A stretch of DNA of 43,429 nt, from the IMG/VR virus record IMGVR_UViG_2522572023_000001. The stretch is one strand, 5' to 3'. The position numbers are program-made. Below, piece after piece: positions 16,501 through 22,500 of this stretch. Position 1 is the first letter of the stretch. Every line of letters starts with the position of its first letter. The stretch is from a virus. Taxonomy: Duplodnaviria; Heunggongvirae; Uroviricota; Caudoviricetes.

Positions 16501-19500
16501 GTGTATGGCCATATAGGCTTTATAAAAACATCCTGACTGATTATATACCTGATGATATTGATCGTTCAGAACTCTCATAAGATGGAGAACAGTTTCTGCA
16601 CTCTCATTCTCTTTTGGTATAATTTCATGAATGATGCTGTCCAGTTGATATTTTTGCTTGCATGTTAGGATTTTTGTAATTCTTTCATCGATTTCAATGC
16701 ATATTGAATTATTTTTATCGGATAATAACAAATCATTTTCCTGTGTATTTGTTTGTATCTCTTGTGGGATATTAATTACCACATCCGTACATGTTCTATC
16801 CACCTCATTTGTCTTTATGTTGTCAAGAAAATCATTTAACGTCAGTTGAGAACCCAATTCATTAATGTAGTCCAATGATGACGTAGAAGAGCTATTATCA
16901 AGAAAATCGTTCAGAGTGAGCTCGGAGTCGTTTCTTGTTATCGGATATACATTTGTGGAAGCGGCTAATTTAATACTCCGGTTGCTGGAGGTAGAAGCTG
17001 TTGGTTCAGAGGTTGACGAACACTGCATGTCAATGCATACATAACCTTTATTTGAAGTTGAATTTGGAATCAAGTTTCCTCCTGAATTAATGGTTTTCCA
17101 TAATACTAACTATTGATAAAAATATTTTGCATTTCATTAAAATAAAAAACCCCATGGAAAATATTTTTTGTTAGTTATTACATACAGCACATCAGGTCGT
17201 CAATATAGTCTAACTATAGTTATCACTAAAAACTTGCCTCGATTTTAGATTTTTCCAGTATTTGTAGATATTGCACTGAACACCGAATACGTAGCAGAGG
17301 GTGTCTACACGATAACGTGCTATGAGCTACCATGTTGTCGAAAAATTGTTTAGTGAGTATGACATCAGGAATGTGGTGGTCTGTTTTAATATTTCTATTT
17401 CTATTTCTATTTCTATTTCTATTTGTTGTGATTTTTTCTTTAGTTCATGTATTTCGATTTGTTTCTGAATTATCGGGGGTAGTGTCTTCCCTTTTCCCTG
17501 AGGCTTATCATGCAGTTATTTTCGCCATCTTGGTATTGTGGAAATACCGACATCCATAGCTTTGGTGAGCTCTGTTCAGGTGGCCAAATTCAGAAAACCA
17601 TTACGGAGGAAGAAGGCGATGGCTAAACCAGCGCGAAGACGATGTAACCGTAAAAGAGAAGATTTAACTGTTAAAAGGATATTTGAGTTACTAAGTTTCG
17701 ATAAATCTACCGGGGTATTTAGATGGAAAGTTCCCACTCAGGGAAGGATAGCATTAAATAGTGTTGCTGGAGCTTTTGATTCCAACGGTTATTCAATGAT
17801 CATGATAGATGGGCGTAGATATAAAACTCACGTCTTAGTTTTTTACATAACTCATAATCGTTGGCCTGCTGGTCAAATTGACCACGTTAATGGAATTAGG
17901 ACCGACAATAGGCCAGAAAATTTAAGAGAATGCCTGCCAATAGAAAATTCAAGAAATATAAGGATCCGAAAGAATAGCAAATCAGGTTGCAGAGGGGTTA
18001 CTTGGCACAAACGACAGAAAAAATGGAATGTTAGGCTAGGATTCCATGGCAAGAGTAAACACTTCGGATGCTTTGATGATCTGGAGTTAGCGGTACTAGT
18101 TGCTGAAGAAGCCCGAGATAAGTATTACGGTGATTTTTCCGGCAACGAAAGGAGCACTTATGCGAATCTATCGAAGGAAATGTAAATGTTGCAATGAATG
18201 GTTTATACCAAAATATCAAAATCAATATTGGTGTAATGAGATTTGTGGAACCAAGATAGCACTCGAACGACGAAGTAAAGAACGCGAAAAAGCGGAAAAG
18301 GCAGAAAAGGCAGCAGAGAAGAAACGACGACGAGAGGAGCAGAAACAGAAAGATAAACTTAAGATTCAAAAACTCGCCTTAAAGCCCCGCAGTTACTGGA
18401 TTAAACAAGCCCAACAAGCCGTAAACGCCTTCATCAGAGAAAGAGACCGCGACTTACCATGTATCTCGTGCGGAACGCTCACGTCTGCTCAGTGGGATGC
18501 CGGACATTACCGGACAACTGCTGCGGCACCTCAACTCCGATTTGATGAACGCAATATTCACAAGCAATGCGTGGTGTGCAACCAGCACAAAAGCGGAAAT
18601 CTCGTTCCGTATCGTGTCGAACTGATTAGCCGCATCGGGCAGGAAGCAGTAGACGAAATCGAATCAAACCATAACCGCCATCGCTGGACTGTCGAAGAGT
18701 GCAAGGCGATCAAGGCAGAGTACCAACAGAAACTCAAAGACCTGCGAAACAGCAGAAGTGAGGCTGCATGAATATCTACGAAAGAATTGATGGCAGCAAA
18801 TACCGAAATATTTGGGTAGCTGGCGACCTGCACGGATGCTACACGAACCTGATGAACAAACTGGATACGATTGGATTCGACACCAAAAAAGACCTGCTCA
18901 TCTCGGTTGGCGATTTGGTTGATCGCGGTACAGAGAACGTCGAATGTCTGGAATTAATCACATTCCCCTGGTTCAGAGCTGTGCGTGGAAACCATGAGCA
19001 AATGATGATTGATGGCTTATCAGAGCGTGGAAACGTTAATCACTGGCTGCTTAATGGCGGTGGCTGGTTCTTTAATCTCGATTACGACAAAGAGACTCTG
19101 GCTAAAGTTCTTGCCCATAAAGCAGAAGAACTTCCGTTAATCATCGAACTGGTGAGCAAAGATAAAAAATATGTCATTTGCCACGCCGATTATCCTTGTG
19201 ATAAATACGAGTTTGGAAAGCCAGTTGATCATCAGCAGGTAATCTGGAACCGCGAACGAATCAGCAACTCACAAGACGGGATCGTGAAAGAAATCAAAGG
19301 CGCGGACACGTTCATCTTTGGTCATACGCCAGCAGTGAAACCACTCAAATTTGCCAACCAGATGTATATCGATACTGGCGCAGTGTTCTGCGGAAACCTC
19401 ACATTGATTCAGGTACAGGGAGAAGGCGCATGAGACTCGAAAGCGTAGCTAAATTTCATTCGCCAAAAAGCCCGATGATGAGCGACTCACTACTGGCCAT

Positions 19501-22500
19501 AGTTTATTGGTTTTCGTAACTGAGTCATTTTATTATTTTATTGCAACTTTTAATCTTTTATAGTGCGAAATAAATGGAGCTGGCATTCATTTCGCACTTT
19601 ATGTTTTTGTTGGACTTATGTTATTTTGATTGAATTCAATTCAGTTAAAAAAAGAAGGTGATTGCTCCATTTATAAATGAATAGTCATCCCCTGTCTTGA
19701 ATTCTGATGTTACTTTATTAAATGCTAGTGTGAAGGCTACAGGTGCATACCCAATTGTTGCGCCAACTTGATATTCATCAACAGTTTTGTTTAGCGATAC
19801 TGTTGTTTGTTTCGTCTGTATTGTTTTTCCTTCGAGAGTATAGTTGCGATTGACATCTCGTCTTTCCATACCTGCAAAAATCTTGTATTTGAATCCGCTT
19901 GTATCGGACATATGCATTAAACCACGGGGAGCCAGCAGACCAAAGCCATTATCCGAATTGAAGGTTTTATCATTACCAATGGCAATGGTTGCGCCATATG
20001 CTACATATTGAAATAAGTTTCCAGTAACAGCAGAAACTTCAGGGTATAATCCAACATTAGCACCTAAAATATCCATACTTGGTGTCATGGATAGCATCCC
20101 TTTTACAGTATAACCGTAGCGATTCTCTATTTGATCATCCCATGCATGATATTTTTCTGCCCCAATAATCTCATGAGCTTTATTTTGTACTTTCTGACCG
20201 CCTGCGTCGGGGCCAACAACACCTATGTCAGTACCTAATCGATAGCGAATCCAGTCATTCGCAAGGGAGTTCCATTCAATACCAGTGTGAGTGTATGCAC
20301 TAAAAGCTCTGTCTCCAGTTACAGCTGTGTTGTGTCTTTTATTACTGCCTGATGGAGAGTAAATATCTTGCGCAATATGGAGAGATAATTGGCTCGAGTC
20401 TGAGATATCGTGGCTATATCCCAGAAATAAGCCTTGTGAGTAATCATCTCTGTTTTCATGTTTATTGCCATAAATATCATTAAGTATTGGTTGAAACTTC
20501 CCTGCATCATCATTTGCTAATGATAATGCAAGGCTGTTCGCGATAGCTGAACACGTGGTAAATGACAGAGCAATAAAGACGCCAGCGATGACACTTTTTT
20601 TCATATGTTATTGTCTTCCTTTTTTTTGAATGGTGCGCGTATTTTACATACATGAGTTTGTAATACAAGGTGCGTAATCAATATGATGTTTTATAATTGC
20701 GTGAGACAATTGATTTATTCGTTTTTTATTGCGGTTTTATTATCTTTTAATGTAACGGTGTTTTTATTAAGTGTGTTTGCGTGGTGTTTTATGTTTTTTA
20801 TAATTTTTATTTTATTAAATTTAAATGCATTAGTAATGGCTATTCTATATAGCAATATAAGAACTGTTACAAAAAAAGGGGGGCAATTACAGGTAGTTAT
20901 GGATGATGAGTGAAACAGATATTGGAGAACCGGGGAATGAATGATGTCTGAGTCTTATATATCAGAACTCCTTCGCTGTCGCTGGGGGCTCCTGTGCTTA
21001 TGTCGTTTCCCCGATTCGGTTTTGAACGATTACCGAATGTTGAAGAATTATGCCAAAATATAGAAAGGATTTACTGCATGAATACCCAATATTTACAGTA
21101 TGTTCGTGAGCAACTTATGGCAGCTACTGCTGACTTGAACGGAGCAACGAAAGGCCAGCTCGAAGCCTGGCAGGAGCATGCACAATTTGATACTGGTACA
21201 TACAAACGAAAGAAGCCGCGCATTCTGGATGTGGTAACTGGCAAGATGATTACGCTGGATAATACGCCGACTTCCGGTAAGCAGTCGTACGCAAAAGGTT
21301 CATCCATTGCTTTGGTCAGCCCGGTTGAATTCTCAACCTCTTCATGGCGCCGCGCGGTTTTGTCTCTCGATGAACATCAGAAAGCATGGTTGCTTTGGTG
21401 TTACAGCGAAAGCGTTCGATGGGGGCATCAGGTCACCATAACGCAATGGGCATGGAGCGAGTTTAAAGATTTGTTAAGTAACAGAAAAATTGCAGGTAAG
21501 ACACTGGATCGCCTGAAGACGTTAATCTGGCTGGCTGCACAGGATGTGAAGAGCGAACTTGCAGGGCGTGAGGCCTATGAATACCAGACACTGGCATCAT
21601 TGGTGGGAGTGACAACAAAAAACTGGTCCGAGACATTTACTGAACGCTGGGTTGCAATGAAGCACATTTTTCTACAGCTTGATAGTGATGCTTTATTGCT
21701 TGTGACGAGAACACGTTCAAAACAAAAGGCAGCATTTTTACAGCAAAATATTGCAAAACTGGATTAAAAGCCATATACTTCATGCAAATTTGGTATGTTG
21801 TAAAAAATGTATAAACCCGCTGCCGAGTGGGTTTTTTTTATGCCCTGAGTTGTACTTGTACGGTAAACATGCTGGCTGCTATGTAATAGAGTTTTTTTAG
21901 CCTGTAACCTCTTGACGGCATTGAATTGCTTTTGTTATGAGTTGTAAGCCAATGTTATCATCTTGTATTGGGGTGGTTATGAAGGATGGTGCGCTGCTCA
22001 GGAGTTCTTCACTTTTTATTGCCTACATGGGATGCCTTGGATGGGGGAGTGCTTATTTCTATGGATGGGGTACTTCTTTTTACTACGGCTTCCCATGGTG
22101 GATTGTAGGTGCAGGTGTTGATGATGTTGCCAGAAGTTTATTTTTTGCAGTTATCGTCATTGCTATATTTCTTATCGGTTGGGGTATTGGTGTTGTATTC
22201 TTTTTCGCAGTGAAAAGAAAACATTCTATGCAAGAGCTAAATGTATTTCGCCTTTATTTTGCTGTGGAATTATTGTTTGTGCCGGCAATTATTGAGTTTT
22301 CTATATTGAGACAGAAGATTCAGGTACCTCTTTTGCTACTGTCAGCAGCGATTGCGCTGGCGGTTACAATTTCGATAAGATCTTATGGGCGATTTTTATC
22401 GGTATCATGCTTCTATGATAAGCCATTTATAAAAAAACATTTTTTTGAGATTGTGATGATTGCTTTTGTGGCATATTTTTGGCTTTTTTCATTTCTGACA

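Follow-up and report, generated by a model that had tools for sequence, protein, structure and literature searches.

The window analysed here, a 43,429-nt stretch of DNA recorded in IMG/VR as IMGVR_UViG_2522572023_000001, is a lambdoid prophage of the phage 434 type, defective and adjoining ybhC in Escherichia coli O145:H28, and is identical to positions 787268-830696 of strain RM12761 (NZ_CP007133.1). Between its nin genes and its late genes lies a real and sharply bounded mosaic junction, in which a lambda-type nin region ending in a stub of the antiterminator gene Q is followed by a cargo segment carrying lpxR, by a second antiterminator gene of the Q82 family with its own predicted late promoter (pR') and pause element, and by a generic module of terminator and late genes. 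To the account as a whole, including the way in which the unit would work, we assign a probability of roughly 0.88. The junction itself is ordinary: it is already known from the sequenced and annotated genome of phage 434, which Feiss et al. published in 2022 (PMC9119081).

The Q82-family antiterminator and its predicted late promoter

The main finding concerns four features at the right-hand side of the junction:

21078..21767, plus strand: Q antiterminator of the phage 82 family, 229 amino acids (aa) (PF06323; 89% identity to phage 82 Q)
21751..21779, plus strand: predicted late promoter pR', with -35 hexamer TTGCAA (21751-21756), 17-nt spacer, and -10 hexamer TATACT (21774-21779) (promoter scan; conservation)
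21791..21811, plus strand: predicted sigma70-dependent pause element (conservation; register with the 82 pR', PMC5001585)
21813..21839, plus strand: predicted intrinsic terminator tR', AAACCCGCU-GCCG-AGUGGGUUU plus U-run (terminator scan; fold; phage 434 annotation)

The 229-aa protein matched PF06323 over profile positions 1-216 of 220 (E = 1.7e-91; 306 bits against a cut-off of 25), and this was its sole Pfam match at the scan threshold of E <= 0.01. PF06323 represents the Q82 family, with PF06530 and PF03589 representing the Q21 and Q-lambda families, respectively (PMC9388147). In a gapless alignment, 203 of the 229 residues were identical to the characterised Q of phage 82 (E = 1e-153), and PF06323 was found in all 120 listed homologues out of 2,681. 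The full-length profile match and the close similarity to phage 82 Q place the protein in the Q82 family, and the position of the gene agrees with this, as it lies directly upstream of a promoter-terminator pair, with the holin, lysozyme, and Rz genes further downstream. Judged by family membership, the protein is thus a Q antiterminator, and its activity is implied by the identity of the gene (100% at the nucleotide level) to the Q of the viable phage 434. The initial annotation had placed a Q-type gene here and had suggested a profile search against the Q families, which this match supplies. Of the two observations that it had named as contrary, an unrelated protein family and the lack of a pause or qut-like element before the terminator, neither was made: a Q family was matched, and a pause element is present.

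The same annotation had given the gene as a 257-aa open reading frame (ORF). The mechanical ORF, from a GTG at 20994 to 21767, does exist, but the gene itself was assigned to 21078-21767 because the Pfam match begins only at residue 32 of the longer version, because 229 aa is the length of phage 82 Q and of 116 among the 120 listed homologues, with the phage 82 alignment starting at MNTQYL, and because both the NCBI pipeline PGAP and the phage 434 record start Q at ATG 21078. Furthermore, a Shine-Dalgarno-like sequence (GAAAGGA) lies 8 nt ahead of this ATG, and the 28 extra codons overlap the small gene ylcG in another frame. Although the frame is open from 20994, a true product of 257 aa is very improbable.

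The second Q gene, with its promoter and terminator, had further been described as being of the phage 21/933W type. This would fit the region downstream, where the SASA esterase, class II holin, lysozyme, and Rz genes (~23245-27185) are ~95% identical to those of H-19B and of Stx1a and Stx2 phages; judged from these alignments, it is only in this esterase and lysis part that the late region is Stx-phage-like. The Q/pR' unit does not bear the description out: neither PF06530 nor PF03589 was matched at the above threshold, the closeness to phage 82 Q speaks for the Q82 family, the Q of Stx phage H-19B has 144 aa rather than 229, and the pause element occupies the 82-type position (+6..+14). We therefore regard a 21/933W-type unit as scarcely tenable. 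An expectation that DLP12 quuD and H-19B Q would be 82-like also proved wrong, as these genes encode proteins of 127 and 144 aa, respectively.

A sequence search of Q against the PDB returned chance matches only (E of at least 0.12) and thus no solved relative, and no match to NCBIfam was found. An AlphaFold2 model of the 229-aa protein was unusable (mean predicted local distance difference test score, 42; predicted template modelling score, 0.23), being built on 30 homologues that were all at least 72% identical; the 120 listed homologues were too alike for a deeper alignment. We know of no solved structure for the Q82 family.

The -35 hexamer of pR' lies within the last codons of Q, and the predicted start (+1) is position 21786, the first A of AAA. 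We compared 10 divergent Q82-family loci from phages of E. coli, Enterobacter, Klebsiella, and Salmonella, in which the 3' ends of Q are 70-90% identical at the DNA level. TTGCAA and the pattern TG-N-TAT-NN-T were invariant in all 10, and the neighbouring positions varied. Beyond approximately +26 these loci are unrelated, most having a visible hairpin and T-run of their own. Taken together with 80 closely related viral loci, which fall into two allele classes at pR' and the pause element, they show promoter and pause element conserved in register, followed by unrelated sequence with locus-specific terminators.

The register of +1 was fixed on the 82-type alleles, in which the first A of AAA stands 7 nt after the -10 hexamer. 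Published features of the 82 pR' (PMC5001585) are a start at AAA, a pause at +25/26, a pause-inducing sequence that resembles an extended -10 element, U at +25, and GCC at +15..+17, and in our register the 82-type alleles indeed have GCC at +15..+17 and T at +25. The window carries the extended -10-like sequence TGgTATGTT at +6..+14 (21791-21799) and T at +25 (21810), so that the cognate pause element of the Q82 family is present, with GCC replaced by GTA. By analogy, the polymerase should pause at T+25/A+26 (21810-21811). Among the 10 aligned Q82-family late promoters, the 434-type allele is the only one with GTA for GCC (compared with L005, L056, L058, and L092-L097).

The stem of tR' (21813-21834) has 9 pairs and a 4-nt loop, is followed by 8 T, and begins 45 nt after the Q stop codon, confirming the intrinsic terminator that had been noticed at about this distance. 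With a folding energy of -13.3 kcal/mol (z = -4.1) and a stem-loop passing directly into a U-run, its sequence is that of a Rho-independent terminator, which is predicted to be active. The stem starts at predicted +28, only 2-3 nt past the predicted pause, and the terminated RNA would be ~56 nt long; PhiR47_2, with an 82-type allele, has its terminator start at +50. The length of the T-run ranges from 7 to 9 among otherwise identical loci.

A CII-type site given in the phage 434 record (21743-21756, minus strand; paQ) was set aside: the window has 14 matches to the consensus TTGYN6TTGY where chance alone would give 10.7, and at a frequency so near chance the site carries no weight on its own.

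Module boundaries, the lambda Q stub, and the lpxR cargo

The remaining features of the junction, from left to right, are as follows:

18768..19433, plus strand: ninI serine/threonine phosphatase gene, the last lambda-type nin gene (Pfam Metallophos, calcineurin-like phosphoesterase, E = 3.4e-16)
19430..19519, plus strand: lambda Q 5' stub, a 29-codon ORF (translation; alignment with lambda J02459; phage 434 annotation)
19491..19503, no strand: left breakpoint J1, end of lambda Q homology (alignment with lambda)
19562..19598, no strand: hairpin between the Q stub and the 3' end of lpxR (folding; inverted repeat I2)
19645..20604, minus strand: lpxR, outer-membrane lipid A 3'-O-deacylase, a cargo (moron) gene of 319 codons (PF09982, E = 6.8e-40; structure 3FID, E = 3.6e-153)
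20605..20926, no strand: AT-rich intergenic spacer upstream of lpxR (26-29% GC by composition profile; geneless in the phage 434 record and in PGAP)
20927..20944, plus strand: right breakpoint J2 and rusA remnant, the last ~5 codons and the stop (alignments A1 and A4; BLAST)
20941..21063, plus strand: ylcG-like small gene, 40 codons (NF033498, E = 7.4e-13; PGAP start at 20944)
21800..21814, no strand: breakpoint J3 between the Q-pR'-pause module and the terminator/late-gene module (BLAST; alignment)

Breakpoints were mapped by alignment and BLAST of the window against all fetched loci, and five recurred across loci (19419, 20927, 21058, 21796-21800, and 21814). The initial annotation had recognised a recombination mosaic of lambda Q stub, cargo, and a second, different Q gene, and this stands; the single breakpoint that it had envisaged has to be replaced by at least three (~19491-19503, ~20927, and 21800-21814). 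At the rightmost of these, homology to the 82-type loci stops at 21796-21800, the end of the Q-pR'-pause module, and from 21814 onward the same terminator and late genes are present in phage 2B8, whose Q is lambda-type. Q with its own promoter and pause element therefore forms one module, and the terminator with the late genes forms another. The first genes after tR' encode a multi-pass membrane protein of 247 or 252 aa (21937/21952-22695), whose 247-aa version had no Pfam, NCBIfam, or PADLOC match, and a DUF3927 (TciB-like) peptide (22781-22939); phage 2B8 carries the same pair.

At the right breakpoint of the cargo, homology to phage 82, DLP12, and 'empty-site' prophages starts at 20927-20932, and more than 30 loci gave BLAST segments beginning at either 20927 or 20932. 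The empty-site loci L049 and L053 have the order rusA-ylcG-Q and the same late region but no lpxR, and rusA, the Holliday-junction resolvase gene, is intact in L049. Both the 3' remnant of rusA and the ylcG-like gene, which scored 48 bits against the NF033498 cut-off of 30 and thus belongs to the YlcG family, had been missed in the initial annotation. A longer rusA remnant to the left of 20927 was suggested by a weak amino-acid resemblance and rejected for want of support at the DNA level. We also dismissed, as a probable chance occurrence, a 12-nt direct repeat, GATGATGAG(C/T)GA (19474 and 20902), near both ends of the cargo as a signature of recombination, because the two flanks differ in origin and short two-copy repeats are common.

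On the left, the ninI/Q junction is ~97% identical to lambda at the nucleotide level. As first described, Q starts as in lambda, with the TGA of ninI overlapping the stub ATG at 19430 (ATGA) and 20 lambda codons in place. The DNA is identical to lambda J02459 through 19490, partly similar up to ~19503, and unrelated beyond, so that exactly 20 lambda Q codons are left; 9 unrelated codons (LLAIVYWFS) follow before the stop. The stub, labelled 'antiterminator-like protein ... N-terminal fragment' in the phage 434 record, is a non-functional remnant of lambda Q. With 20 of 207 codons left and a stop after 29, it does not belong to the Q-lambda family (PF03589), and it had no NCBIfam match. J1 is the same whether ninI or ninH precedes: a breakpoint at the gene boundary (19419) separates the loci, about half of the lpxR-bearing ones having ninH, not ninI, before the same stub. 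Just 3' of the stub there is an 8-nt tandem duplication (ATTTTATT x2, 19527-19542); no other indel distinguishes the left part of the junction from phage 434.

The hairpin reported after the stub was recovered by folding at 19562-19598. It folds with clearly greater stability on the minus strand (-19.1 kcal/mol, z = -6.7) than on the plus strand (-16.6 kcal/mol, z = -2.5), lies 46 nt beyond the lpxR stop codon, and moves with the low-GC cargo, not with lambda sequence. It is thus best explained as the 3' hairpin of the minus-strand lpxR transcript, although a U-rich tract (UUUAUGUUUUUG) trails it on the plus strand, and it may also serve as a terminator in the pR operon. That it is mainly a rightward terminator of that operon, comparable to the nin terminators of lambda, rather than the end of the lpxR messenger RNA, is possible but the less probable reading: UUUAUGUUUUUGUUGG follows the hairpin on the plus strand and the trailing sequence on the minus strand (UAUAAAAGAUUAA) is U-poor, as this reading would have it, while the strand difference in stability, the distance to lpxR, and the association with the cargo favour the lpxR 3' end. 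The two roles are compatible with each other.

The presence of a minus-strand lpxR-like gene was likewise confirmed. Residues 24-319 of its product matched chain residues 2-296 of the Salmonella LpxR structure (3FID), the N-terminus carries a signal-like sequence (MKKSVIAGVFIALSFTTCSAIA), and the ANDDAG and AHxIIG motifs, containing N9, D10, and H122 of the mature protein, which we take to be the active-site residues, align identically with 3FID. The profile match and the similarity to a solved, enzymatically characterised enzyme place the protein in the LpxR family (PF09982); no NCBIfam match was found. The gene is probably a lysogenic-conversion gene, transcribed leftward from its own promoter and independently of the phage programme. 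The spacer at 20605-20926 had been described as an AT-rich leader of Q. The AT-rich stretch is present, but it is more plausibly the promoter or regulatory region of the divergent lpxR, which rightward transcription from pR would also cross; in the promoter scan, promoter-like matches in this spacer were no commoner than in shuffled sequences. A single scan of genome contigs for the cargo donor gave only a Citrobacter lpxR homologue and no donor of the hairpin and AT-rich region.

In enterohaemorrhagic E. coli (EHEC), lpxR modifies lipid A and is co-regulated with the enterocyte effacement locus (LEE) by Pch and Ler, according to passages in PMC6393859 and PMC9263587 that cite Ogawa et al. 2018. 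Behind its lysis cassette, the window prophage also has a PerC-family regulator gene (27658-27972; PF06069, E = 3.8e-44); nleH (39098-39979) and cif (40203-41030), which encode type III effectors, follow the tail-fibre genes. Since Pch proteins are PerC homologues and are reported in those passages, with Ler, to activate lpxR, regulator and target may share one element.

Proposed origin and working of the unit, and the state of the prophage

An old illegitimate recombination may have joined three segments: a lambda-type nin region retaining 20 Q codons; a low-GC cargo composed of the hairpin, lpxR, and its AT-rich upstream region; and an 82-type segment that starts in the last rusA codons and would have brought ylcG, the Q82-family gene, and the late promoter and pause site of that Q. 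The generic terminator/late-gene module would have been joined directly behind the pause site.

The proposed working rests on the paradigms of phages 82 and lambda and on the viability of phage 434. After induction, RNA polymerase from pR, modified by N, would pass the nin genes, the dead Q stub, and the hairpin, proceed antisense over lpxR, and express ylcG and the 229-aa Q. pR' (TTGCAA-17-TATACT) would fire constitutively, and sigma70 would re-engage TGgTATGTT and hold the polymerase near +25. Without Q, transcription would stop at the hairpin and U-run (+28..+57), yielding the RNA of ~56 nt, while polymerase loaded with Q at the pause would read through into the membrane-protein, esterase, and lysis genes.

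Several points weigh against this account. The start of pR', the pause position, and the terminator activity are all predictions for the window allele, and generic promoter and terminator scans were not enriched over shuffled sequences in the region, so that the case for promoter and pause rests on conservation instead. Substitutions to A at +15..+17 shortened the pause at the 82 pR' 2- to 5-fold (PMC5001585), and since GTA replaces GCC here, 434-type pausing may be less strong or occur at another position. Finally, the prophage is defective, as follows from the splitting of replication gene O by an IS3-family element and the deletion of most tail genes, so that in RM12761 the Q unit may have lost its role in virion production. 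The IS3-family element (11280-12493) lies inside the split gene O (10999-12595) and contains an Rfam ALIL frameshift pseudoknot (11561-11677; 120 bits). The loss of tail genes is near-complete, with a remnant at 36377-36703.

The defects raise the further suspicion that Q/pR'/tR' is an inert relic in RM12761, with Q never usefully expressed and the late region silent. Besides the interrupted gene O and the missing tail genes, this reading appeals to the route from pR to Q, which leads through the hairpin and its U-rich tract (19562-19610) and through 1.4 kb of head-on lpxR transcription. However, Q, ylcG, pR', and tR' are nucleotide-identical to those of phage 434, which forms plaques with the same stub, hairpin, and lpxR before Q, and the window retains intact N, cII, Q, and lysis genes. 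The block is also at least 99% identical across hundreds of genomes, although this may only reflect recent spread. We consider an inert relic unlikely, and a unit that works as in phage 434 remains the preferred explanation.

Two further ideas, taken together, are improbable enough to count as speculation. In the first, head-on transcription of lpxR could throttle Q by interference or antisense RNA and so couple the virulence regulon to the timing of late genes, the grounds being that lpxR is head-on to the sole route from pR to Q, that the passages cited above report its activation by Ler and Pch, and that a PerC-family gene lies in the same prophage. In the second, the 434-type pR' could be an unusually compact loading and termination unit for Q82, given GTA at +15..+17 and the terminator hairpin 2-3 nt past the predicted pause. 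If the latter were true, this promoter would be useful for testing Q82 as a closed RNA-exit nozzle.

The junction is widespread. The whole block was found in 620 of 5,426 complete E. coli genomes, including O157:H7, O55:H7, O145, O111:H8, and O103:H2 strains, and the lpxR cassette in 622; PGAP has annotated the junction genes in hundreds of E. coli genomes. For this reason, and with phage 434 on record, the junction adds little that is new. Its worth lies in being a clean textbook case of lambdoid mosaicism, in which Q, promoter, and pause element are one module, exchanged separately from the terminator/late-gene module; lpxR, a moron related to virulence, is seated between the nin genes and Q, and 20 codons of the displaced lambda Q survive as a fossil of the recombination event. 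GTA at +15..+17 and the start of the terminator at +28 could interest workers on the Q82 family.

Elsewhere in the window, an Rfam lambda cIII thermoregulator element (RF01804; 6972-7030, minus strand; 88.5 bits) at the start of cIII indicates that the early-left operon is lambda-type. A 590-aa gene between ninE and ninG (15301-17073, minus strand), with no Pfam or PADLOC match, is an uncharacterised nin-region moron; it adjoins an HNH endonuclease gene (17619-18185, plus strand), and a perfect (TATTTC)x5.8 tandem repeat (17390-17424) lies between the two. Both genes are absent from phage 434.

Comparison with known systems

The window shares with phage 82 (X92588; PMC5001585) a Q protein of 89% identity and the order rusA-ylcG(orf45)-Q from 20927 onward. 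The pR' regions agree in the -35 hexamer TTGCAA, the 17-nt spacer, the AAA start, the extended -10-like sequence at +6..+14, and T at +25. They differ in that the window has GTA rather than GCC at +15..+17 and TATACT rather than TATATT as -10 hexamer. In contrast to phage 82, ylcG stops 5 codons early and does not overlap the start of Q, the terminator is unrelated and begins at +28 instead of ~+50, and the 82-type nin genes have given way, upstream of rusA codon -5, to the lpxR cargo and to a nin region of lambda type.

Lambda and the window agree in the ATGA overlap of ninI with Q and in Q codons 1-20. Unlike in lambda, no lambda-type Q-binding element or pR' lies behind the stub, and the presumed working antiterminator comes from a family without obvious sequence similarity to Q-lambda (PMC9388147).

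For lpxR, the full-length mature protein of Salmonella (3FID) is matched and N9, D10, and H122 are kept, but the window gene is prophage-borne, between the nin genes and Q. The chromosomal Citrobacter homologue shares the coding region alone (72% nucleotide identity) and no flanking sequence.

Phage 434B (OL657227.1) has the same sequence up to 21058, comprising the stub, lpxR, and most of ylcG. Past a crossover in ylcG, it differs in carrying the 127-aa Q homologue of DLP12 (quuD type), nmpC::IS5, and the DLP12 lysis genes, and this swap shows ylcG to be a recombination hotspot for the exchange of Q modules.

The closest relative is phage 434 (OL657226.1), with 99.6% identity over 19300-22000 and no nucleotide difference in lpxR, ylcG, Q, pR', or tR'. 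The only changes within that region are single-nucleotide polymorphisms at 19500 and 20754, the 8-nt duplication (19527-19534), and a 1-nt indel at 20734. The shared order runs from ninI through the lambda Q N-terminal fragment, LpxR (minus strand), the YlcG-like gene, the 'Q82-like' activator/antiterminator, and the terminator, these last five being already annotated in the phage 434 record, to the membrane protein, DUF3927/TciB, and the SASA esterase. The window differs from phage 434 in being defective, with the IS3-family insertion in gene O, the additional HNH and 590-aa genes in the nin region, and the tail deletions.

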